A stretch of 64,000 nucleotides of DNA, from the NCBI RefSeq assembly GCF_058153355.1, contig NZ_CM177019.1, one strand, 5' to 3'. The translations under genes were made by a program, and so were the position numbers. Positions within the stretch are counted from its first letter, which is position 1, and every line of letters starts with the position of its first letter. This document shows, piece by piece, positions 31,147 to 52,637 of this stretch. The notes under the pieces were generated by a model. The model was given only the letters and a program-made list of their open reading frames with translations, did no database searches and was not told where the DNA came from.

Positions 31147-31414
31147 AAGCTGAAGGGCGTCAACCGAAAAATGACCAATGATGGTGAGGAAAAATCAGGG
31201 AAGATGAAAAAAATTCAGGATAAAGGCCAAAGTTCCTCGTACCTGAACATGTGGAATATACCTCATTTAAGATGATATTTATTTGTTTAATTATTTTTTC
31301 TATTAACCGGTGCAACGAGTGTTAAAGCGTGTAATTTTAGGATTATATCAATAGTCACGGTTATACAAACAGTGATAATTTATGAAATAATTTTATTTAC
31401 CAGAGGAATAGCGC

Positions 31415-32389
31415 ATGTATCTTAATACTCAAGTTCAATATAATAAGTTAAATAAAGATGAAAAAAAGATCCTGTTGTTACAAAAGCTAGCCCATTTAAC
31501 TGATTTTACTTTTGACAGAATAGAGACATTTTCAGCATTTGGACAATCTACTGAAACAGGTGTTTTTAAATATAAAGATGGCAATGAATTTGTTGTTGTC
31601 CCCGGGGATACAGTAATATTAGGGTGGGATGCCAGTCTCAATAATATGGATGGTCCGACAAAACAAGAATTTGAAGAGATGTTGGAACCAGAAGGTTTAG
31701 ATTTGAATAATTATCTCACCGACTCTTGCACACCTGTCAGGAAGGTTACAATTTCCCCGATGCTGGTTGAAAGAAACGTTCACGCCGAACCAAGTTGGAA
31801 GGAAGTATCTCTTACGGACCCCCGCATCACAGAGAACAGCATGCTGCAAAAATTTCTGTCTGATTATATGGAAAAAATTAATCCTGGAGTTCACGAATTA
31901 AACGCAAGATTGAAATTACAATATATAGATGGGGATTTATTTGCACAAATATATGAATCAATTAGCTATGATGAGTTACTTCAAAATATCCAAAGCAATA
32001 GTTTTGATCTTCCGAGCGAAGATGAATGGGAATATTTATGTGGCGGTGGTTCCAGGACACTCTGGCGCTGGGGGAATAATTTCGACTATCAAATGAAAAT
32101 CCCATTTATTACTTCAGAAGAACCAACAACCTGGGATATAGAATGGCCTAATCAGTTTGGGTTGCAGATTGCATTTGATCCCTATCTTCAGGAAATTATT
32201 AATGATAAAGATATTCTTCTGAAAGGTGGCGATGGTGGGTGCAATCTCTGCGGAGGTGCTAATGTTGTATTAGGATTCTTGCCTGTGGCAACTTATTACA
32301 AAGGATATAATAAACATACGGACGAATTAGAATATATGGATGACATTGGAGACAATTATACTTCTTATCGCAGAATAATTCGTTTATGA
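31415..32389 (+). CDS. hypothetical protein, FGE-sulfatase (SUMF1/EgtB/PvdO-like) domain suspected
   Basis: 324-aa ORF, very AT-rich by eye; motifs FVVVPGDTVILGWDAS, SEDEWEYLCGGGSRTLWRWGNNF and NQFGLQI resemble the MVxIPGGxFxMG, AEWEYAxRGG...PWG and NxxGLxDM motifs of formylglycine-generating-enzyme-like domains; no signal peptide. Confidence 0.5.
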   Translation: MYLNTQVQYNKLNKDEKKILLLQKLAHLTDFTFDRIETFSAFGQSTETGVFKYKDGNEFVVVPGDTVILGWDASLNNMDGPTKQEFEEMLEPEGLDLNNYLTDSCTPVRKVTISPMLVERNVHAEPSWKEVSLTDPRITENSMLQKFLSDYMEKINPGVHELNARLKLQYIDGDLFAQIYESISYDELLQNIQSNSFDLPSEDEWEYLCGGGSRTLWRWGNNFDYQMKIPFITSEEPTTWDIEWPNQFGLQIAFDPYLQEIINDKDILLKGGDGGCNLCGGANVVLGFLPVATYYKGYNKHTDELEYMDDIGDNYTSYRRIIRL

Positions 32390-32440
32390 GTAAAAATTAT
32401 ATTTCAGGACAAGAAGTTATGCTCGGGTCAAGCTAATGAA

Positions 32441-33952
32441 TTGCTTAACGCAAGGAATAAAAACGTATTGATGAACACTGGGAATTTCGAGTCGATACAA
32501 ATCATGATCGACGCGCAAGAGTGGCGTAGCCTGCCGCTGCATCTGCGTCTGTATCACGCTTTTCGCCAATTGGTGATTTCCGGCGCATTGTCTGATGGCG
32601 CAAAACTGCCTTCCGCTCGCGCACTGGCCCAGCAACTTGGTCTTTCCAGAGATACCATCGAAAATGCCTATTCCCAGCTCCACCGCGACGGTTTTATGGC
32701 TCGCAGGCAGGGGGCCGGGAGTTTCGCCAGCCGCCAGGGGATACCGCATATTCAGGGCCAGCATGCGCAACCACCCTCGCCCGGACAAGTACCGGCTTTA
32801 AGCGCTCGCTGGCAGCCAATTGCCGATCGCGCAGTCTCTTTCGATGCCCGCCAGATGCAGACCTTTACGCTTGGCCTGCCGGAAACGCGAAACTTCCCGC
32901 TAAACATTTGGCAGAACTTTTCCCGCCAGATCCAACGTGAGCAGGCACATACGCTGATGTTAAATAGCGATCCGCAGGGCGAGCCACAGCTGCGCCAGCA
33001 AATTGCGCATTACCTTAATTTTGAACGCGGCGCGAAGGTAGATGCCGGGCAGATTGTGATTGTCAGCGGCGCACGGCAGGCGTTCTGGCTGTGCGGGCAA
33101 CTGCTGGCAGAGGCCGGACAGTCGGTGGCGATGGAAAATCCGGGCTATCCCGGCGCGCGTCAGGCGTTTTCTGCCGCACAGCTTAATCTTCTTCCCGTTG
33201 AAGTGGATGACGCCGGGATCCGGGTGGATAAACTGCCGCCCGCGCCGCTGGTTTACGTCACGCCCTCGCACCAGTTTCCTTCCGGTCATTTGCTCACGCT
33301 GGCGCGGCGTCATGCCCTGATTGCCTGGGCGCAGGCGCACAATGCGTGGATTATCGAAGACGACTACGACAGCGAATTTCACTACACCAGCGCGCCCGTC
33401 GCCTGTCTGCAAGGGTTAGACTGCGAGCAACGCACCCTGTATGTCGGCACTTTCAGCAAAACGCTCTATCCCGGCCTGCGCATCGGTTATCTGGTGGTGC
33501 CGACGTCGCTGGCTGCGCACTTTGCCGCCGCGCGTAATTTGCTTGATGGCGCAACGCCTGCGTTATCCCAACTAACGCTGGCGCGATTTATCGAGTCCGG
33601 TCATTTTGCCGCCCATATTCGCAACATGCGTAGTATGTATGCGGTGCGACAGGGGTGCCTGGCAGAGGCTATTCATCAGCACTTAAGTGAATGGGTCACG
33701 CCAGTGGTGACATCCGGTGGATTGCAAATGCCCTGCTGGCTGCATGGAGGTATTGATGAGCAACAGACGCTGAATGCCGCGCGCCGCGCCGGGTTAAACA
33801 TCGCCGGAATGCGCCAGTTCTGGCTGACGCACCCCGCGCACGCGGGCTGGCTGCTGGGATTCGCCGCCTTTACCCCCTACGAGATTGAACAGGGCGTCAA
33901 GCGTCTGCGGGCTGCATTATGCACTGAAAACGTGCGCCCAGCCGGGTCATAA
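32441..33952 (+). CDS. MocR/GabR-type regulator (GntR HTH fused to a PLP aminotransferase-like domain)
   Basis: 503-aa ORF; N-terminal GntR-like HTH (LPSARALAQQLGLSRDTIENAYSQLHRDGFMARRQGAGSF) followed by a roughly 350-aa aminotransferase class I/II-like region; true start may be an internal Met; GC-rich by eye. Confidence 0.8.
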   Translation: MLNARNKNVLMNTGNFESIQIMIDAQEWRSLPLHLRLYHAFRQLVISGALSDGAKLPSARALAQQLGLSRDTIENAYSQLHRDGFMARRQGAGSFASRQGIPHIQGQHAQPPSPGQVPALSARWQPIADRAVSFDARQMQTFTLGLPETRNFPLNIWQNFSRQIQREQAHTLMLNSDPQGEPQLRQQIAHYLNFERGAKVDAGQIVIVSGARQAFWLCGQLLAEAGQSVAMENPGYPGARQAFSAAQLNLLPVEVDDAGIRVDKLPPAPLVYVTPSHQFPSGHLLTLARRHALIAWAQAHNAWIIEDDYDSEFHYTSAPVACLQGLDCEQRTLYVGTFSKTLYPGLRIGYLVVPTSLAAHFAAARNLLDGATPALSQLTLARFIESGHFAAHIRNMRSMYAVRQGCLAEAIHQHLSEWVTPVVTSGGLQMPCWLHGGIDEQQTLNAARRAGLNIAGMRQFWLTHPAHAGWLLGFAAFTPYEIEQGVKRLRAALCTENVRPAGS

Positions 33953-33956
33953 TCTC

Positions 33957-35003
33957 CTACGGGATGGTGTTGCAGGCAGCGGCAACCTGTTCCAGCGTCT
34001 GGCCTGCGCCAATAAATTCCACCTTATCGCCCGCTGTCGGCGTGACGGAGCTGGCATCGACCATAAAGCTGTCCATACAAACCCGCCCCAATACCGGTAA
34101 CCGCACGCCGCGCCAGCATACGCCCGCCGGAGGACGCATATTTCGCGGAACGCCATCCGCGTAACCCGCGGATATCGTAGCGATACGCAGCGGACGCGTG
34201 GCGGTAATCGTGCTGCCGTAGCCAACTGGCGTTCCCGCCGGGACATCCTGCACGCGCAGAATAGTTAGCGTCAGCGTAAAAGCCGGTTTTAGCGGCCTGG
34301 AAAACCACGGCTGGGCGACGCCAAACAGCGCAATCCCCGGACGGCAGAGATCTTCCCGCCAACCTGGTTGCAAAAACATTCCGCAGGAGTTCGCCAGCGA
34401 AAATCGGCTGCTGGGGAAAACCGTTTTTGCCTGCTGGAATAGCGCGTGTTGCGCCATATTTAACGCATGATCCGGCCTGTCGGCGTTCGCCAGATGGCTG
34501 ATGATATAGTCCGGCGCAGGCCAGTTACGCTCACGAAAAATCGCCGCCAGACGCATCAGTTGTTGCGGCATCATGCCCAGCCGCGACATACCAGAATCGA
34601 GCTGAATCATCACCGCGCTCCGTTGCTGGCGCGTTTCCAGTAACGTAAGCCACGCCATCACCTGGTCTACGGAATTGAGCAATGGCGTGATCTGCTGCGC
34701 GTAACAATACGCCATCGCCTCCGGCATAACCCCATTAAGCACTACCACCATCGCATCAGTGGGCAGGATTTTACGCAACGCCACGCCTTCAGAAAGCTGT
34801 GCGACAAAAAAGATCCGGCAGTTCGCCGCATACAGGGCGGGCGCAATCGCCTCCGCCCCCAGACCATAGGCATTGGCTTTCAACACCGCGCCACATTGCG
34901 CAGGGGCAGCATGGCGGGCCAGCATACGATAATTGTCGACGATGGCGGCGCGATTAACGCACATAACACCGCACGCCGCCTGGATTTCAGTAGAAGTCAT
35001 CAT
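33957..35003 (-). CDS. alanine racemase-family PLP enzyme (amino-acid racemase, specificity unknown)
   Basis: 348-aa ORF; VLKANAYGLG (PLP-lysine motif, cf. VVKANAYGHG in Alr) and SAGYADGVPR (cf. MGYGDGYPR catalytic Tyr region). Confidence 0.8.
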   Translation of the reverse strand: MMTSTEIQAACGVMCVNRAAIVDNYRMLARHAAPAQCGAVLKANAYGLGAEAIAPALYAANCRIFFVAQLSEGVALRKILPTDAMVVVLNGVMPEAMAYCYAQQITPLLNSVDQVMAWLTLLETRQQRSAVMIQLDSGMSRLGMMPQQLMRLAAIFRERNWPAPDYIISHLANADRPDHALNMAQHALFQQAKTVFPSSRFSLANSCGMFLQPGWREDLCRPGIALFGVAQPWFSRPLKPAFTLTLTILRVQDVPAGTPVGYGSTITATRPLRIATISAGYADGVPRNMRPPAGVCWRGVRLPVLGRVCMDSFMVDASSVTPTAGDKVEFIGAGQTLEQVAAACNTIP

Positions 35004-36238
35004 TAATAAGGCAACGGGTAGCGGTTGGTTAGTTGTATTACTTTTTGCTCAATATCGGCGCAAATGTCTGCAATATCTGATGAATTAATGGCGAAAATAA
35101 TTTCACTTATCCAGTCGGCAATCAGCGCAAAGTCATCCGCCTTCATCCCACGCGTGGTGCAGGCCGCGCTGCCAATACGAACGCCGGAGGTAATCAACGG
35201 CGGCTGCGGATCGCCCGGCAGGGTGTTTTTATTGACCGTGATCCCCGCCAGTTCGAGAAAGTACTCCACCTGTGCGCCGGTTAACCCCTGCGGGCGCAGG
35301 TCGATAATCCCCAGATGGCAGTCGGTGCCGTCCGTTAACAGCGTCAGGCCGCGCAGCGCCAGTTGCTGGCACATCGCCTGCGCATTGTCGATAACCTGCC
35401 CGGCATAACGTTTAAATTCCGGTTGTAATGCCTCGCCAAGCGCCACCGCTTTCGCTGCGATAACGTGCATCAACGGCCCGCCCTGCAAACCGGGAAAAAT
35501 GGCACTGTCGATTTTTTTCGCAAGCCTGGCGTCGTTGGTGAGGATCATGCCGCCGCGCGGCCCGCGCAATGTTTTATGCGTGGTGGTGGTGACCACATCA
35601 GCATACGCCAGCGGCGAAGGGAAACAGCCGCCCGCCACCAGCCCGGCAAAGTGCGCCATATCCACCAGCAAAATGGCGTCAACGGCATCGGCAATGCGGC
35701 GAAAACGGGCAAAATCATAGTGACGTGGATAAGCCGATCCTCCGGCAATAATCAACCGCGGGCGCTCACGCAGCGCGATCATCTCGACCTGATCCATATC
35801 AATCAAACCACTGTGCGCATCGACGCCATAGTGAAAAGCGTTAAACCATTTGCCGGATTGATTGACCGGCGAACCGTGCGTGAGATGCCCGCCGCATTGC
35901 AGGCTCATGCCAAGAATTTTGTCGCCGGGTTTCAGCAACGCCAGATGGACCGCCTGATTCGCCTGGCTGCCGGAGTGAGGCTGCACATTGACGTAACGCG
36001 CGCCAAAGAGCTGCTGCGCGCGGGTTATCGCCAGCATCTCAACCTCATCAATAAACTTACAGCCGCCGTAATAGCGATGCTGGTAATAACCTTCGGCGTA
36101 TTTATTGGTTAACACCGACCCCTGCGCCGCGAGAACGGCGGGGCTTACGAAATTCTCCGAGGCAATCAGTTCCAGCGACTGCTGCTGGCGCTGTTGCTCC
36201 TGGTTAATCAATGCAAAAAGTGGATCGTTATTTATCAT
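35003..36238 (-). CDS. serine hydroxymethyltransferase-family PLP enzyme (GlyA paralog)
   Basis: ORF 35003..36304; from [30 protein letters not shown] collinear with E. coli GlyA including [16 protein letters not shown] (PLP lysine); start at the internal Met preceded by gggggaag is more plausible, coordinate +/- a few bases. Confidence 0.85.
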
Positions 36239-36513
36239 GCGCTTCCCCCGCAAATTCATCATGCGATGATTTTCGCAGGGAAAACCTCGTCCGCACCCTG
36301 CCACTTTTTTGGGCAGGTGCAGACCACCTGTATGTCGTATTACTTAAAAGAAGAGAACATCGCTGACAATACCGGTATTAACTCCGAAATGAAGAGGGAA
36401 GAAGGCTCCGGCCATCTCCATGTGCGATTCTGGCTAGTAAAACATCATATTCCAGCTGCTCTTATCCGCCTACGTTATTGCATATACGGATAAGGCAGCC
36501 TCAATACGTACTT

Positions 36514-38067
36514 TTACTTGATATCTTTCACGCGCATACCGTTGATCTGTTCATCCGTGATGGTGTTACCCGCTTTAAAGTAATCAACCACCGCGTGATA
36601 AACGTAATAACCGCCCGTCGTATTGCGCGCTTTACCCTCGGTAAACGCGGTAAAACCATCTCCACCATCAGCAAGGAAACTCTGAGTGGCAATGTGGTAA
36701 ACCGTCGCATCTTCAATCGGTTTGCCATTCAAAGTCAGTGAGATAACCCGCTGACCAACCGGCTTGCTGCTGTCGTACTTCATTTCCAGGCCTTTCGATA
36801 CCTGTAAAACGCCATTACTTAAACTTGCGCCGTGTTCCATCAAACTGCGTAATTGTTTACCCGTGAGTTCCATCGTCACCAGTTCGTTGGGGAACGGGAA
36901 GGTACTGATGACGCCACCCATCGTAATTGCACCCGCCGGGATCTCATTGCGGATACCGCCAGAGTTGGTTAACGCCAACTGGGTATTTTTACCCGCCGCT
37001 GCCAGTAAAGCATCTGCCGCCAGGTTCCCGAGAGAAGCCGATTCACCATAGGCACGTTTTAGTTCAACCGGCGATTGCGCCACCGTTTGCTGCACGACTT
37101 CATCCAGCTTTTTATTCCAACTATCAATCACCTGTTTTGTTTGCGGATCGGGCTTCCACTCGTCGGCGTAAAGGGTTTTAAGCTCGAAGTTTTTCACCGT
37201 AAAAGTGTGCGGCTTCTCTTTGTAGTCCAGTACCAGTTTACCCACATCAATCCCACCGCTGTCAGTGGAGAGGATGAGCGTATTGCCGACTTTAATCGGT
37301 TCCGGCGTACCCACATGTGCATGCCCGGTGATCAAAATATCCAGCCCTTTCACCTGACTTGCCGTCTGAATATCTTTATCCAGTGCGCGGCGCACATCTG
37401 TGCCCCCCATACTGGACTGGCGGGCCGGAACACCTTCGTGAATCAGCGCAACGGTCAAATCAACCTTGCCTTTGAGTTCATCGATATAACGTTGTAGCCA
37501 TTTAATTTCATCACGCGCCTCAATACCCACTCGCGTTGCCGCAGATACCGTATCATTAAAGGCAAATACACCGTGCAAACCAATCACGCCAATTTTCACG
37601 CCGTCTTTTTCAATGATGGTATAGGGCTTATCCCAGAATGATTTACTGCTGTTCTGATAAAAAACATTACCCTGCACAATCGGGAATTTTGCCTGACTCA
37701 ACTGTAATAACGTATTGTCCCAGCCGTGATCAAATTCATGATTACCTATAGTGGCCGCATCGAACGGCATGGTATTCATAATATCGATAATCGCCTTGCC
37801 TTTAGTCAGGCTGCTGATATACGGCCCGGTAAAATAGTCACCCGCATCAAAAAACCAGGTCGCTTTGTTTTTAGCTTTTTCTTGTTTAACAAGCGTAGTG
37901 ATATTTGCCCAGCCGCCAATATCTCGTTTACCGTCAGCAATCCACGGCACTTTATAAGGCTCTACATGTGCATGGAGGTCGTTGGTATAAATGATGGTGA
38001 CATCTTTGGCGCAAGCCCAAAACGGCAGTGTTAATGCGATACCCGCAGCAAGCATTTTAATTTTCAT
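36514..38067 (-). CDS. secreted 5'-nucleotidase / metallophosphoesterase-family protein (UshA-like), paralog 1
   Basis: ORF 36514..38073; signal peptide [20 protein letters not shown]; calcineurin-like motifs NDLHAH, GDYFTG, GNHEFD, ITGHAHV and a C-terminal 5'-nucleotidase-type region; start trimmed to the ATG preceded by a purine-rich SD. Confidence 0.85.
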
Positions 38068-38125
38068 AAACAATCCCTTCCAGTGAGATAAAGGATTGCT
38101 ACATTACGTTCTGAAAGGCTTTTTT

Positions 38126-38143
38126 ATGTGAGAATACTCACAT
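38126..38143. promoter_or_regulatory. 7-4-7 inverted repeat (candidate operator) in the divergent promoter region between the paralog-1 nucleotidase and the zinc-ribbon protein gene
   Basis: atgtgag-aata-ctcacat lies centrally in the 132-bp divergent intergenic region 38068..38199. Confidence 0.4.
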
Positions 38144-38199
38144 CCAGAGGCGATAACTGTAGGACAAAATCAACGACCTTATGAAATCGTTGGTGATAT

Positions 38200-39327
38200 A
38201 TGTCAAATCTGTTTGCGATTAATGTCTGTAAAACGTTCGGTTGTCGAAATTTGGGATTGGCCTCATCGGAAGATTACAGTTGGCCAGACTATAAACTGGG
38301 TTTTCCGGCACTGCACTGCCAGGCATGCGGAAGTTACCCCCCTTTGTTTGATGAACAACAATTTCGTGACTGGTTGTCAGTTCACATGACTGCGTGTGCC
38401 ATAGAAACAGGGCATTTTTGTCCATCATGCTATTGTAAAGAAAAGATTTTTTATGGCCACAACCCGCAGGGAACACAACGCGTTCAATGCCGTTCATGCA
38501 AAAAAGTCTGGACTCCGAAACAGCAGCCAGCAAGAGAAATTACGTATCCCCAGTCCATTGAAACCGTTCAACTGTTCATGCCCTTTCAAGGAGCCAGCGC
38601 AGTACAAAAGCTCTATGTTTTAGTCAGTCTTGACGCCACTCGTGGCAACATCCTTCATCTCTCCACGAATTATACGCAACATCAGACAGGAGACAGTCTG
38701 CGGTACAGTTACAGAGGCAATACAGAACCAACTGAGCACCATAGCGATATTGTGCAGAGGGTAGATATGCGTGAAGCGCAATTCTTGCGCCGGAGCCAGT
38801 TCGATGAAATTCAGTATGGCAGTGCTGTGCTCAAGCGCAACGGCAAGGGAGCCATACTACGCCCGGTTATCACGGCACACGGGCATTTCAGAATACTGAA
38901 AATCCGCTTTCCACATGTCAAAACGCATATCATTTCACACGAATGTTTTCTGAGAGGCGCAATTATTACAGCCTGGGCAGATCAGTTCCGCCAACAACAA
39001 GGCGAACTTTGGTTCGTAGAAGAAGAAATCAGCGACCGTAACGCTGATATTCCCTGGCATTTTCAGGGAACGACATACCATGGTTGGTGGCAAAATCAGT
39101 GGCAACGCTGGGGGCAGGGGAATAACAGCAAGATGGTCTGCCTGCTCACAGGAGTCTCCTTAGAAAGGGGCGCAAATGTTTCTCTGGCAACCAGTCGTTG
39201 CTTTATCACATGGCTGACAGACCAACACGACTTTACCCAAAGCGCGTTATTATCCGCAGGTCGCGTAACGAAAATGCTGACCTCACTGGCGTTAAAATAC
39301 AATGAATCGCTCAATCCATCTTGTTAG
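38200..39327 (+). CDS. hypothetical Cys-rich protein with N-terminal zinc-ribbon(s), possibly transposase-derived DNA-binding protein
   Basis: 375-aa ORF; Cys pairs CKTFGC...CQAC and CPSCYCKEK-x14-RVQCRSCKKVWT resemble the IS1 InsA / IS1595-type zinc ribbon (CPSC...QRYLCSHCRKTWQ); remainder not recognisable; no signal peptide. Confidence 0.45.
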   Translation: MSNLFAINVCKTFGCRNLGLASSEDYSWPDYKLGFPALHCQACGSYPPLFDEQQFRDWLSVHMTACAIETGHFCPSCYCKEKIFYGHNPQGTQRVQCRSCKKVWTPKQQPAREITYPQSIETVQLFMPFQGASAVQKLYVLVSLDATRGNILHLSTNYTQHQTGDSLRYSYRGNTEPTEHHSDIVQRVDMREAQFLRRSQFDEIQYGSAVLKRNGKGAILRPVITAHGHFRILKIRFPHVKTHIISHECFLRGAIITAWADQFRQQQGELWFVEEEISDRNADIPWHFQGTTYHGWWQNQWQRWGQGNNSKMVCLLTGVSLERGANVSLATSRCFITWLTDQHDFTQSALLSAGRVTKMLTSLALKYNESLNPSC

Positions 39328-39556
39328 TCAATACACTCGACAAACGACCATAAATTAATGGGATCACTATTTCTCATTTAATTAAATATATGAATGTATG
39401 ACTGAAAAATATAATCACAGTCAATGTTTAATTAATAACATTATTTGTTACTAAGATCACATAATACTTTCCTGACCTATGCTTACATAAAAATAAGACA
39501 CGGAGTTCCTTTTATTTAAATAATTCAACCAATGTAACAACCCCTATCAAGGAGGG

Positions 39557-42770: not shown

Positions 42771-42792
42771 TAAAAAAATTATAATGCCATTC

Positions 42793-42826
42793 ATTCACTG
42801 AATGGCATTATTTTCTCTAAATCAAC
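42793..42826 (+). terminator. intrinsic terminator after nucleotidase paralog 3
   Basis: aatgccattcattcactgaatggcatt inverted repeat followed by attttctc. Confidence 0.65.
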
Positions 42827-42847: not shown

Positions 42848-43708
42848 ATGTGTATAAAAAAGCACGGGATAGCTTTATCGATTCTATTAATACCTTGCAT
42901 TGGAAACGCTCAGGAAATTAAAAGTGAGGAAGGCTGGTTACATCAAAGCTTGAATGTCATTGGTCGCACAGACTCTCGCTTTGGCCCAAGGCTGACTAAC
43001 GACCTCTACCCTGAATATACTGTAGCAGGAAGAAAAGACTGGTTTGATTTTTATGGTTATGTTGATCTACCAAAATTCTTTGGCGTCGGCAGTCACTATG
43101 ATGTTGGGATCTGGGATGAGGGCTCACCACTATTTACGGAAATAGAACCTCGGTTTTCCATTGACAAATTGACCGGATTAAATCTTGCGTTCGGCCCTTT
43201 TAAAGAATGGTTCATTGCAAACAACTATGTCTATGATATGGGTGACAACCAGTCATCCCGGCAAAGTACATGGTATATGGGGCTTGGTACAGATATCGAC
43301 ACGGGTCTACCAATTAAGCTTTCTGCCAATATATACGCCAAGTATCAGTGGCAAAACTATGGTGCCGCTAATGAAAATGAATGGGACGGATATCGATTCA
43401 AAATAAAATATAGCATTCCTCTTACCCATTTATTCGGAGGGCGATTGGTATACAATAGTTTTACTAACTTTGATTTTGGATCCGATCTTGCGGACAAATC
43501 ACACAATAATAAACGAACCAGTAATGCTATTGCTTCAAGCCATATCCTTTCCCTGCTATATGAACACTGGAAATTTGCATTTACACTACGTTATTTTCAC
43601 AACGGTGGACAATGGAATGCTGGGGAGAAAGTTAACTTCGGAGATGGTCCATTTGAATTAAAAAACACAGGATGGGGAACCTATACTACTATTGGTTATC
43701 AATTTTAA
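42848..43708 (+). CDS. Tsx-family outer-membrane nucleoside-specific channel protein (paralog of tsx)
   Basis: 286-aa ORF, AT-rich; signal peptide then blocks matching E. coli Tsx from memory ([97 protein letters not shown]) and a C-terminal aromatic residue. Confidence 0.85.
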
Positions 43709-43924: not shown

Positions 43925-46357
43925 CTACAACAACTGCGCCAGACGGTTAATATCCGACTGAATCGCCCCGGCGGTGACGTCGCGCCCTGCGCCTGGCCCA
44001 CGGATCACCAGCGGGTTGTCGCGATACCAGCGGCTTTCGATGGCAAAGACGTTATCGCACGGTAGTAGTGATGCCAGCGGATGGTCTTCTCGCACCGCTT
44101 CCACGCCTACTCGCGCTTTGCCGTTAGCATCGAAACGCGCCACGTAGCGCAACACCAGCCCCATTTCACGGGCCGCTTCCAACCGTTGTACCATCTGCTC
44201 ATTAAGTTCATCGCCATTTTCAAAGAAATGGTCGATGCTGCCACCTTCGCAATGGGTTGGCACCAGTGATTCAACACGCACCTGGTCCGGTTCAATGTTG
44301 TAACCCGCTTCACGCGCCAGAATCACCAGCTTGCGCATCACATCTTTGCCGGAGAGGTCATCACGCGGGTCAGGTTCAGTTAAGCCCTGCTGCCACGCCT
44401 GATCCACCAGCTCAGTAAACGGCACGCTACCGTCGAATTGCAGGAACAGCCAGGAGAGCGTGCCGGAGAAGATCCCGCTGATCGACAAAATAGTGTCGCC
44501 GCTGTCGATCAGATCGCGCACGGTATGGTTGATCGGCAAACCTGCGCCGACGGTGGCGTTGTATAGCCAGTGACGCCCGGTTTTTTCGAACGCGTCGTGG
44601 ATCTGTCGATATTTATTGCTGTCGCTGGCTCCCGCCAGTTTGTTGGCACTGATGACGTGGAAACCGTGGCTGGCGAAATCGAGATACTGATCAGCAAGCT
44701 GCTGGCTGGCAGTAACGTCCAGCACCACTAAATCATCATACGGATGGGCACGCATCCACAGGAACAGCGACTCTTCATCCTGTTCGACGGCTTCATCATT
44801 AAAGAAGGCTAGCGCACGGCTGGCGTCCAGCCCGTCATAGCTCAACAGGCTGCGACGGCTGTCCACCACGCCTGCCAGCACAAATTCAAAGCCGGTGCGC
44901 GCCGAGAGCGTGCTCTGCTCACGGGCGAACAGTTCCAGCCAGCGGGAACCGATATTGCCCTTACCGAACAATACCAGGCCGATGCGTTTTTCTGCGCGGA
45001 AGACGGACTGATGCAGCCCCTGAATCAGGCTTTCGGTCGGCCCGGTGCGCAGTACTGCCACCAGGCTGATGCCGTCATCGGACTGCCAGGTAAACTCGAC
45101 CGGCTGGCCTTTCAGTTGCTGCCAGAAGCGGTGGCAATGCAGCGGGTTACGGGTGACGCCCGCCCCAACCATCGCCACCAGCGCCAGCCCCTGACGCAGG
45201 CGCAGTTCGCCGGGTAATCCTGCTTCGTCGAGGATTTTCAGCGCACTGTCGGCCACTTCCGAGGTGTAGCAAAATTGCAGCAACTGGCGATCGTTATGCA
45301 CGCCAACTGCCAGTGGGCGCACCTGAGCACGTTTCAGGATTTGGTCGATCTCTTTATGCGCCAGTTTAAAATCCTGACTGGCGGGCACCTGAAACTCAAT
45401 CAAACAGACATCATCGTGGCTGGTGACAATACGCGCGCCAGTACCTGAGGCCAGCACGCGTTCAATACGCGTAGATCCTTGATCCGGTGTATAGCTACAG
45501 CGCAGCTGCAGGTCGATTTCGCTGCCAGAAACTGGCTGTAAAGTACGCGCGTGCAACACTGGCGCGGCAAGACGCGCCAGTTCACTGGCTTCATCAAGAC
45601 GCAGCAATGGCAGCAGACAGGCATCTTTCACTTTACGCGGGTCGGCACTATATACCCCGGCGACATCGCTCCAGATGGTTACGCGGGAAACCCCCGCCAG
45701 CGCACCGATTTGTGTCGCGGAATAGTCGGAACCGTTACGCCCCAGCAGCACCGTTTCACCGGCGTTGTTACGGCTGATAAACCCGGTCACCACCAGACGT
45801 TTGCCCGGATGTTGTACCAGTAGCTGTTGCAGCAACGGGTAAGAAAGCCCTTCATCAACCTGCGGCTGCGCGGCGCGTTCAGCGCGTAAAAACTCGCGGG
45901 CATCAAGCCAGGCCGCTGGCAGCCCTTGTTGATTAAGTACCGCAGACATCAGGCGCGCCGACCACACTTCACCGTGGCCCACCACTTCCGCATACACCGC
46001 ATCGTTAATACCGCTGTCGAGCAGCGCCGCCAGGCGTTCCAGATCGCTGACAAAAGCGCTAATGAGGCTATCGGCTTCTTCAGCGGGTAGCAGGCCGCTA
46101 ATCAGATCGCACTGATAGCGACGCAGCGTTTGTTGAACCTGATGCGCAGAGAGACGATCGGTCTGGCTTAGTTTCAACCAGTTAATCAACTGGTTAGTGG
46201 TGCTACCGGCGGCGGAAACCACCATCATATCGTCAGGCTGAGAGTACTCCGCCATAATGCCCGCGACACGCAAATAACACTTCACATCAGCCAGACTACT
46301 GCCACCAAATTTATGCAGTTGACGACCTTTCGCCCCTGCCTGCGCAATCACACTCAT
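43925..46357 (-). CDS. metL: bifunctional aspartokinase II / homoserine dehydrogenase II
   Basis: 810-aa ORF MSVIAQAGAKGRQLHKFGGSSLADVKCYLRVAGIMAEYSQPDDMMVVSAAG. Confidence 0.96.
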   Translation of the reverse strand: MSVIAQAGAKGRQLHKFGGSSLADVKCYLRVAGIMAEYSQPDDMMVVSAAGSTTNQLINWLKLSQTDRLSAHQVQQTLRRYQCDLISGLLPAEEADSLISAFVSDLERLAALLDSGINDAVYAEVVGHGEVWSARLMSAVLNQQGLPAAWLDAREFLRAERAAQPQVDEGLSYPLLQQLLVQHPGKRLVVTGFISRNNAGETVLLGRNGSDYSATQIGALAGVSRVTIWSDVAGVYSADPRKVKDACLLPLLRLDEASELARLAAPVLHARTLQPVSGSEIDLQLRCSYTPDQGSTRIERVLASGTGARIVTSHDDVCLIEFQVPASQDFKLAHKEIDQILKRAQVRPLAVGVHNDRQLLQFCYTSEVADSALKILDEAGLPGELRLRQGLALVAMVGAGVTRNPLHCHRFWQQLKGQPVEFTWQSDDGISLVAVLRTGPTESLIQGLHQSVFRAEKRIGLVLFGKGNIGSRWLELFAREQSTLSARTGFEFVLAGVVDSRRSLLSYDGLDASRALAFFNDEAVEQDEESLFLWMRAHPYDDLVVLDVTASQQLADQYLDFASHGFHVISANKLAGASDSNKYRQIHDAFEKTGRHWLYNATVGAGLPINHTVRDLIDSGDTILSISGIFSGTLSWLFLQFDGSVPFTELVDQAWQQGLTEPDPRDDLSGKDVMRKLVILAREAGYNIEPDQVRVESLVPTHCEGGSIDHFFENGDELNEQMVQRLEAAREMGLVLRYVARFDANGKARVGVEAVREDHPLASLLPCDNVFAIESRWYRDNPLVIRGPGAGRDVTAGAIQSDINRLAQLL

Positions 46358-51456: not shown

Positions 51457-51611
51457 TGCGCAAACGATGCGAGGCGGATCGAAAAATTCAATATTCATCA
51501 CACTTTTCATGAAAATTCTGTAACCGTTTTCACGCGCTATCTGCTAAAAATGTTGCCGATGTGAAGTAAACATGGAAGTAGTACGCCTGCCGTGCCGGGC
51601 GAGGAGTGAGT

Positions 51612-52637
51612 GTGAAAGCGAAGAAGCAGGAAACTGCCGCGACCATGAAAGACGTTGCCCTGAAGGCAAAAGTCTCTACAGCGACCGTCTCCCGAGCATT
51701 AATGAATCCCGATAAAGTCTCCCAGGCCACCCGTAATCGGGTTGAAAAAGCGGCCCGGGAAGTAGGTTATTTGCCGCAGCCTATGGGGCGCAACGTCAAG
51801 CGTAATGAATCCCGTACCATTCTGGTGATTGTCCCGGATATCTGCGATCCCTTCTTTAGCGAAATTATTCGCGGTATCGAAGTTACGGCGGCAAATCACG
51901 GATATCTGGTGCTGATTGGCGACTGTGCGCATCAAAATCAGCAGGAAAAAACCTTTATCGATTTGATCATCACCAAGCAAATTGATGGCATGTTGCTGCT
52001 GGGTTCAAGGCTGCCGTTTGATGCCAGCATTGAGGAACAGCGTAATCTGCCGCCGATGGTGATGGCGAACGAATTTGCACCGGAACTGGAGCTACCAACA
52101 GTTCATATCGACAATCTGACCGCCGCATTTGATGCAGTAAATTATTTATATGAGCAAGGGCATAAACGGATTGGCTGTATAGCCGGTCCCGAAGAGATGC
52201 CGCTGTGTCACTACCGCCTGCAAGGCTACGTTCAGGCGCTGCGTCGCTGCGGCATTATGGTTGATCCGCAATACATCGCCCGGGGCGACTTCTCCTTTGA
52301 AGCCGGAAGCAAAGCGATGCAACAGCTGCTTGCTCTTCCGCAACCGCCTACTGCTGTCTTCTGCCATAGTGATGTGATGGCGCTCGGCGCACTTTCTCAG
52401 GCAAAACGCCAGGGGCTGAAAGTCCCGGATGATCTGTCCATAATCGGTTTTGATAACATCGACCTGACGCAATTTTGTGATCCGCCGCTGACAACCATCG
52501 CGCAGCCGCGTTACGAAATCGGTCGGGAAGCTATGCTGTTATTGCTTGATCAAATGCAGGGGCAACACGTTGGCAGTGGCTCTCGTTTAATGGACTGCGA
52601 ACTTATCATCCGGGGATCAACACGCGCGTTACCTTAA
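51612..52637 (+). CDS. cytR: LacI-family transcriptional repressor CytR
   Basis: ORF from 51606; MKAKKQETAATMKDVALKAKVSTATVSRALMNPDKVS... (341 aa if started at the GTG two codons in). Confidence 0.93.
   Translation: MKAKKQETAATMKDVALKAKVSTATVSRALMNPDKVSQATRNRVEKAAREVGYLPQPMGRNVKRNESRTILVIVPDICDPFFSEIIRGIEVTAANHGYLVLIGDCAHQNQQEKTFIDLIITKQIDGMLLLGSRLPFDASIEEQRNLPPMVMANEFAPELELPTVHIDNLTAAFDAVNYLYEQGHKRIGCIAGPEEMPLCHYRLQGYVQALRRCGIMVDPQYIARGDFSFEAGSKAMQQLLALPQPPTAVFCHSDVMALGALSQAKRQGLKVPDDLSIIGFDNIDLTQFCDPPLTTIAQPRYEIGREAMLLLLDQMQGQHVGSGSRLMDCELIIRGSTRALP

Follow-up and report, generated by a model that had tools for sequence, protein, structure and literature searches.

A second Tsx-family channel gene beside three 5'-nucleotidase genes in a metF–metL island of Escherichia coli

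Tsx is a textbook substrate-specific channel, through which the antibiotic albicidin, colicin K and phages of the T6 type also gain entry. Why would a cell that already has Tsx carry a second member of the family, and what would that second protein do? The question is raised by an open reading frame, here called Tsx2, in a 64,000-nucleotide stretch of DNA (the window; NCBI RefSeq assembly GCF_058153355.1, contig NZ_CM177019.1). An earlier note on this DNA had described the frame as a second Tsx-family porin, borne on an island, that may import the products of adjacent nucleotidases and may also change phage or bacteriocin susceptibility. The features discussed below are collected in Table 1.

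Table 1. Positions in the window of the Tsx2 gene, its neighbors and the putative regulatory elements of the island.
Feature	Coordinates	Strand	Remarks
5'-Nucleotidase paralog A	36514..38073	-	c4898 ortholog; RefSeq start gives 36514..38067 = 517 aa; ~98% identical to PDB 3IVD/3IVE
Perfect CRP core	38127..38142	+	TGTGAgaatacTCACA (TGTGAGAATACTCACA; TGTGA-N6-TCACA); in the 126-bp divergent promoter region
Conserved inverted repeat	38171..38192	+	CAACGACC-N6-AATCGTTG; just 5' of the 375-aa gene
Cys-rich zinc-ribbon-like cytoplasmic protein, 375 aa	38200..39327	+	c4897 ortholog; no Pfam family; candidate regulator
CRP-like site	39446..39461	+	TGTTACTAAGATCACA; one mismatch; within the 229-bp leader ahead of nucleotidase B
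5'-Nucleotidase paralog B, 517 aa	39557..41110	+	c4896 ortholog; signal peptide
5'-Nucleotidase paralog C, 541 aa	41145..42770	+	c4895 ortholog; signal peptide
13-bp perfect hairpin and U-rich tract	42781..42811	+	between nucleotidase C and Tsx2; MFE -20.5 kcal/mol, z -5.3
Tsx2 (Tsx paralog) ORF, 286 aa	42848..43708	+	ATG start, stop included; CFT073 c4894/C_RS23130 ortholog
Signal peptide of Tsx2, predicted	42848..42910	+	21 aa, then QE; cleavage site by inspection of alignment
Extracellular loop L5 of Tsx2	43478..43525	+	residues 211-226; 5-residue deletion vs K-12 Tsx within mature 198-207
Extracellular loop L6 of Tsx2	43601..43669	+	residues 252-274; N249 equivalent is Asn, N254 equivalent is Pro

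Tsx2 is encoded by a real, intact gene of the Tsx family. The protein matches the Pfam profile Channel_Tsx (PF03502) over profile positions 4–244 of 244, with an E-value of 4.9e-70 and a score of 236.5 bits (cut-off 27.2), and it scores 491.8 bits against the NCBIfam model PRK15106 (cut-off 311). Among PDB sequences the sole solved relative is E. coli Tsx itself (1TLW, 1TLY and 1TLZ; E = 1.4e-114), and a BLASTP alignment of 262 residues with K-12 Tsx is 65% identical, so the family assignment of the earlier note is borne out. By inspection, Tsx2 also has the features of outer-membrane targeting, namely a Sec signal peptide, whose cleavage site aligns with that of K-12 Tsx (between VNA and AE), and a C-terminal aromatic residue, its final IGYQF matching the GYNF of K-12 Tsx. 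The mature protein has a net charge of −6 and a pI of 5.6, compared with −12 and 4.9 for K-12 Tsx.

An AlphaFold2 model of Tsx2, built with 67 homologs, has a mean pLDDT of 88 and 12 long strands, with disorder confined to the signal peptide. Searched with Foldseek, the model has 1tlw as its top match (E = 3e-34, target-normalised TM 0.87, rmsd 2.3–2.5 Å) and superposes on that structure; a failure to fold as a beta-barrel, which had been named as grounds for giving up the assignment, was not seen. Tsx2 is predicted to form a 12-strand monomeric Tsx-like barrel.

The gene is an additional one. Of 5426 complete E. coli genomes, 660 carry Tsx2 (~12%, about one in eight), always on the chromosome and in a single copy, and 658 of the 660 copies are full-length. 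All but two of the same genomes (5424) have canonical tsx, with at least 80% coverage in 5420, so that at least 658 Tsx2 carriers own both genes. Strain CFT073 is annotated with both genes: tsx is C_RS02405, between yajD and yajI, and Tsx2 is C_RS23130 (old tag c4894), adjoining metL. The description of Tsx2 as a paralog therefore holds, and a check for genomes in which it might be the only tsx homolog came out negative, canonical tsx being kept in essentially all of them. Tsx2 likewise lacks the marks of a primary tsx, since it lies at metF-metL rather than at yajD-tsx-yajI/nrdR and belongs to a separate NJ clade. A search for plasmid-borne Tsx2 found none on true plasmids; the plasmid matches were canonical tsx, or OmpK on large replicons. 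One E. coli sequence that seemed to be a Tsx of a third kind (P0117) proved to be canonical tsx in a frameshift-ridden assembly, and one further match (H62) was set aside because it came from a chimeric assembly.

The window carries the rarer allele of the island, 99.9% identical to that of SMS-3-5. Between the window and CFT073 alleles of Tsx2 there are 20 nucleotide differences, affecting 14 codons synonymously and 6 non-synonymously; of the six resulting amino-acid changes, five affect the signal peptide or N-terminus, and no loop is touched. Compared with the copy in Citrobacter enshiensis, the codon changes are 103 synonymous and 42 non-synonymous. Judged by these codon counts, Tsx2 is under purifying selection and its loops are not diversifying inside E. 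coli. As for expression, RNA-seq of CFT073 placed c4894 among the top 25 genes induced by overexpression of TosR, with a log2 change of 3.3 (PMC5956150). This response, taken with the low GC content of the region, suggests that Tsx2 may be silent in many conditions.

Tsx2 belongs to an island of ~7.5 kb between metF and metL, which further contains three 5'-nucleotidase paralogs and a Cys-rich protein; the GC content is ~42% over 38–44 kb, compared with ~52% in the flanks. In K-12, metL and metF lie 348 bp apart, and similarity to the window ends at the metL stop codon (43925/43926) and restarts at 31221. The note's description of an island-borne gene next to nucleotidase genes is thereby confirmed, with three such enzymes beside Tsx2. 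Three states of the locus are found in E. coli: empty, as in K-12; full, in ~660 genomes; and a deletion form, in ~92 genomes, which keeps nucleotidase A and the 375-aa gene and has lost nucleotidases B and C together with Tsx2. The window has, in addition, four genes between metF and the island (31.4–36.3 kb), encoding an FGE-sulfatase-like protein, a MocR-type regulator, an alanine racemase and SHMT; this insert is rare in E. coli. Searches at the island for the hallmarks of mobile islands, namely a tRNA gene, flanking repeats and integrase or transposase domains, found none of these, and an Rfam scan returned no family. Raised divergence at the 3' end of metL might mark the recombination tract, but metL is mosaic across E. 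coli generally.

The three nucleotidases share 54–66% identity with one another and each has a Sec-type signal peptide. They match the UshA, NadN and YfkN models, although their scores fall well short of the equivalog cut-offs of UshA and NadN, and form a subfamily of their own that includes PDB 3IVD, a structure reportedly deposited with pyrimidine nucleoside ligands. These properties bear directly on the proposal that Tsx2 imports what the adjacent nucleotidases produce. That proposal is at odds with the topology: enzymes of this UshA-type family with such signal peptides would be periplasmic, and their products would form in the periplasm, already inside the outer membrane, so a passive outer-membrane channel cannot import them.

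The island also has putative control elements of its own. Apart from the perfect CRP core in the divergent promoter region between nucleotidase A and the 375-aa gene, no other occurs in the 64 kb, and chance alone would give 0.03. Across E. coli alleles and C. enshiensis the half-sites of this core do not change, while the spacer does. One-mismatch CRP sites stand in the same region of related Enterobacter and Citrobacter modules, described below. Together with the second, imperfect site ahead of nucleotidase B, these sites indicate that the module probably depends on CRP. A simple scan of the island intergenic regions for CytR-like (GTTGCATT-type repeats) and Pho-box motifs found none, so that regulation may differ from that of canonical tsx, whose P2 is CRP-dependent and CytR-regulated; CytR sites are degenerate, however, and could escape such a scan. 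The hairpin that separates Tsx2 from nucleotidase C resembles a terminator or an attenuator; a hairpin is also found in C. enshiensis, and it is degenerate in the CFT073 allele. With such an element between them, co-transcription of Tsx2 with the nucleotidases is not assured. The Shine-Dalgarno sequence of Tsx2 is weak, and synthesis of the protein probably relies on transcripts of the nucleotidase operon that read through the hairpin.

The 375-aa Cys-rich protein is probably the regulator of the module. Pfam and PDB sequence searches with it gave only noise, apart from a single weak hint of an IS1 InsA-type zinc ribbon, and its AlphaFold model has a pLDDT of 42. Every version of the module includes a gene for it.

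These versions extend beyond E. coli. In C. enshiensis the same island occupies the same locus, and its Tsx, at 85% identity, is the closest homolog of Tsx2; all others are at 68% identity or less. In Enterobacter hormaechei, at another locus, the gene for a 391-aa protein (67% identical to the 375-aa protein of the window) diverges from the series nucleotidase, nucleotidase, Tsx, and in Citrobacter freundii, again at another locus, the corresponding gene diverges from the series nucleotidase, nucleotidase, Tsx, nucleotidase. A metagenome contig has a nucleotidase followed by Tsx. Altogether, the linkage of Tsx to nucleotidases is kept in five independent contexts. The E. hormaechei and C. freundii modules (loci L009 and L011) resemble the island in having a divergent gene for a Cys-rich protein of ~375–390 aa followed by 5'-nucleotidases and then Tsx, in having CRP-like sites in the divergent region, and in the clade signature of their Tsx, described below. 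They differ from it in their loci, in a Tsx that is 59% identical to Tsx2 with longer L5 and L6 loops, and in having no hairpin ahead of tsx; the C. freundii module differs further by its third nucleotidase, a radical-SAM gene and an HTH gene.

How far has Tsx2 itself moved from K-12 Tsx? The earlier note supposed that conserved barrel blocks are separated by altered loops, and this is true in part. By structural class, identity between the two proteins is 68% in the strands, 54% in the extracellular loops and 75% in the periplasmic turns, so that the extracellular loops are the least conserved class, and the six internal gap positions all lie within loops L2 and L5. However, strands S1, S2, S11 and S12, at 36–55% identity, have diverged as much as the loops, whereas loop L4 is 100% identical; L1 is at 67%. 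The changes most distinctive of Tsx2 sit in barrel strands, as set out below, and the loops are not the main seat of the difference. Hydrophobic periodicity does not separate the lumen face from the lipid face, both faces of Tsx strands being highly conserved.

Genetic work on K-12 Tsx has identified substitutions that abolish nucleoside transport (F27L, G28R/E, S217R, G239D and G240D) and others that affect the reception of Tsx-specific phages (N249K, N254K/Y and the segment 198–207) (PMC6499177). In an alignment to K-12 Tsx, all five transport positions (F27, G28, S217, G239 and G240) are identical in Tsx2, and channel function is likely to have been kept. The T6-receptor determinants fared differently: one of three, N249, is retained, N254 is replaced by proline, and segment 198–207 is short by five residues, so that at the level of sequence Tsx2 does not have the K-12 receptor form. 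Because its surface differs at two of the three mapped determinants, Tsx2 is probably not a T6 receptor. Of note, a short L5 is normal in the Tsx orthologs of Salmonella and Klebsiella as well.

In an NJ tree without support values, Tsx2 and the module-borne Tsx proteins of Enterobacter, Citrobacter and the metagenome contig group together with one more protein, P0004, outside the primary Tsx orthologs. P0004 is the clade member with no nucleotidase linkage, its gene adjoining sprT and endA. All six accessory members share a signature of L37P, E40T/V/R, H228K/R/S/N, V232T and V267T/N (numbering of mature Tsx). In primary Tsx these five positions vary little or not at all (55–58 of 58 proteins agree), and since they are changed throughout the accessory clade, its barrel interior may not be equivalent to that of Tsx. 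Tsx2 departs from primary Tsx at 18 positions that are at least 90% conserved there, 17 of them in strands, mostly S1, S2, S11 and S12. Its charge changes include the loss of an acidic residue at 40 and the gain of basic residues at 22 and 228.

Taken as a whole, the module, of which Tsx2 is the last gene, looks built to scavenge the products of nucleic-acid breakdown. We think it fairly probable that Tsx2 is a functional accessory outer-membrane channel that adds nucleoside permeability, timed by CRP, to a module for scavenging nucleotides and nucleosides. Its substrate, regulation and receptor properties are what we infer here, the substrate from homology alone. In the absence of glucose, cAMP-CRP would switch on the divergent promoter at ~38.1 kb and the promoter at ~39.45 kb, to judge from the sites alone. 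The nucleotidases, periplasmic by their signal peptides and family, would strip phosphate from nucleotides. When nucleosides or close derivatives are scarce outside the cell, Tsx2 would give them an additional passive, substrate-specific way across the outer membrane. It would act beside or upstream of the nucleotidases rather than downstream of them, and the standard inner-membrane nucleoside transporters would complete uptake. Since these cells already have canonical Tsx, the benefit of a second nucleoside channel would be less than obvious.

Alternatively, Tsx2, as a member of the accessory clade, may have a shifted specificity and admit nucleoside monophosphates or phosphorylated or otherwise modified nucleosides, which would feed the nucleotidases. 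A passive outer-membrane channel is useful upstream and not downstream of periplasmic enzymes, and such a role would fit the conserved linkage, the signature found in every clade member and the less acidic mature protein. All five residues known to be critical for transport are unchanged, however, and the pore-forming blocks are overall 65% identical to Tsx; moreover, the clade to which the argument appeals includes P0004, which is not beside a nucleotidase, and comes from a tree without support values. We regard a shifted specificity as rather unlikely. Somewhat more doubtful again is the fuller proposal that the accessory clade is a distinct subtype with a re-lined barrel, co-evolved with the nucleotidases and a zinc-ribbon regulator into a self-contained nucleotide-feeding pathway under CRP control. 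If true, this would make it the first substrate-specific outer-membrane nucleotide channel in Enterobacteriaceae.

Tsx2 could instead be a silenced and functionally irrelevant remnant of horizontally acquired DNA, as might be read from the GC content of the island relative to its flanks, the weak Shine-Dalgarno sequence and terminator-like hairpin upstream, the ~92 genomes with the deletion form, and a frameshift of nucleotidase B in one strain. Yet a remnant would hardly be expected to retain a full-length frame in 658 of 660 genomes, to show clearly more synonymous than non-synonymous changes, to be inducible in CFT073 (PMC5956150) or to be kept with its module across genera, and we consider this explanation improbable.

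The suggestion that Tsx2 may change phage or bacteriocin susceptibility stands only in part. In its stronger form, the value of Tsx2 would lie in phage and bacteriocin encounters, either as a loop-altered spare that allows Tsx to be lost or to vary, or as the receptor of some other phage or colicin. N254P and the residues missing from L5 do coincide with mapped T6-receptor determinants, and the extracellular loops are the least conserved class. Against this, no replacement of canonical tsx is seen among the complete genomes (coverage of at least 80% in 5420 of 5426), and since that gene is retained a second receptor cannot confer resistance and could at most add susceptibility. The loops of the E. 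coli Tsx2 alleles are identical, without the diversifying selection that would be the sign of an arms race, the short L5 is ordinary in Salmonella and Klebsiella, and the tight linkage to nucleotidases points to metabolism. This makes a phage or bacteriocin role a decidedly remote prospect. The weakest reading, that Tsx2 is the sole tsx of its genome, an ortholog at a rearranged locus, is already refuted by the genome counts, by the annotation of both genes in CFT073, and by a protein only 65% identical to E. coli Tsx that groups outside the primary orthologs.

Carriage of Tsx2 by ~12% of complete E. coli genomes, among them the uropathogen CFT073 and other B2 ExPEC and AIEC strains, has a practical side. 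Results obtained in K-12 on nucleoside uptake, albicidin entry and the host range of Tsx-dependent phages may not transfer directly to strains that carry it. The linkage of Tsx2 to three private periplasmic nucleotidases suggests nucleic-acid scavenging, which may matter in nucleotide-rich host niches.

Among the closest known systems is K-12 Tsx (b0411; 1TLW, 1TLY and 1TLZ), with which Tsx2 shares family, 65% identity, barrel, transport residues, cleavage site and C-terminal Phe. It differs from K-12 Tsx in its place at metF-metL instead of yajD-yajI, in being accessory (12% of genomes) and linked to nucleotidases, in the 5-aa deletion of L5, N254P, R32T and a less acidic composition, and in having a CRP site with no recognisable CytR motif nearby.

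The island itself is already known: the Tsx2 gene is annotated as Tsx throughout RefSeq, the PDB has a structure for one of the nucleotidases, and the island has been published as GR 31, all of which will leave a specialist unsurprised. GR 31, between metL and metF in APEC BEN2908 and in B2 ExPEC/AIEC strains, is the same island, described in silico (PLoS One 2026; PMC12928451). There ORF 131 is an 861-bp Tsx homolog adjoining three UshA-domain ORFs, and its authors propose coordinated nucleoside processing and transport (PMC12928451). The passages of that account consulted here do not mention the CRP site, the 375-aa protein, other genera, the clade substitutions or the phage-receptor residues, and the window differs from GR 31 by its rarer allele and by the extra four-gene insert beside metF. 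What is new here is the CRP site, the cross-genus module with its Cys-rich protein, the clade signature, the mapping of receptor residues and the topological correction.

A literature search on a second or Tsx-like Tsx and on PDB 3IVD found nothing relevant, and no characterised case was found of a dedicated Tsx-type channel genetically linked to 5'-nucleotidases. The logic of the module nevertheless has precedents in E. coli UshA and in Haemophilus NadN with OmpP2, where nucleosides pass the outer membrane in phosphorylated form, lose their phosphate in the periplasm and then enter the cell through a carrier in the inner membrane. The island would follow the same logic with enzymes that match the UshA, NadN and YfkN models; it differs in that these enzymes fall below the equivalog cut-offs and belong to the separate subfamily represented by 3IVD.

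Of the genes in the low-GC island between metF and metL, the one encoding a cysteine-rich protein of 375 amino acids is a candidate for a new regulator. Pfam and PDB searches with this protein returned no family and no structural relative, and its similarity to the zinc ribbon of IS1 InsA is weak. The AlphaFold model has a pLDDT of only 42, too low to give a usable fold. The protein is confined to Enterobacteriaceae, and in all versions of the module examined its gene adjoins the nucleotidases. The inverted repeat upstream of the gene is almost unchanged between the E. coli alleles and Citrobacter enshiensis, and could serve as an operator or as a hairpin in the 5'-UTR.

Features of the island and its surroundings (window coordinates)
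Feature	Position	Remarks
Four-gene insert	31222-36400	between metF promoter region and nucleotidase island
Nucleotidase A	36514-38073	
Inverted repeat CAACGACC..AATCGTTG	38171-38192	immediately 5' of 375-aa gene
375-aa Cys-rich protein	38200-39327	several CxxC pairs
metL	43925-46357	mosaic among E. coli lineages
cytR	51606-52637	usual chromosomal location; ~8 kb from Tsx2

Nucleotidase A is an ortholog (~98% identity) of the protein in PDB entries 3IVD and 3IVE, which originate from structural genomics; a literature search found no paper on that protein. In E. coli ECCNB12-2 (locus L001, 5714-7263), nucleotidase B is annotated as frameshifted even though the Tsx2 protein, the accessory Tsx paralog of the island, is identical to the copy in the window. 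The frameshift in this strain is a hint that the three island nucleotidases are partly redundant.

A deletion variant of the island was also observed. Namely, in E. coli AR_451 and G5 (loci L006 and L016) the island is reduced to nucleotidase A and the 375-aa gene, with a 37-bp overlap between the 3' ends of metL and the 375-aa gene. This variant occurs in ~92 genomes, and its 375-aa gene shares only ~77% DNA identity with the copy in the window. Between island carriers, metL is 91–100% identical per 200-bp block. Relative to K-12, the 3' end of metL, adjoining the island, is 88–96% identical, compared with 98.8% for the flank on the metF side.

The additional insert next to metF, in which GC content rises to 0.58–0.59, is rare in E. 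coli, with 2013C-4282 among the few genomes that share it. Its four products are a 324-aa protein that matches FGE-sulfatase weakly, a 503-aa regulator of the MocR type (GntR/aminotransferase), a 348-aa alanine racemase and a second serine hydroxymethyltransferase, of 433 aa.

Another accessory Tsx, P0004, is encoded in an enterobacterial assembly (locus L004, 8001-8849) and shares 68% identity with Tsx2. At this locus no nucleotidase adjoins the gene, which is flanked by sprT/endA on one side and by a sugar MFS transporter adjoining metK on the other; endA, which encodes the periplasmic endonuclease I, is two genes away.

CytR represses canonical tsx together with the nucleoside catabolic regulon, and its gene lies near Tsx2. 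A motif scan of the island intergenic regions found no CytR-like motif. Because cytR occupies its normal chromosomal position, its closeness to Tsx2 is probably a coincidence.
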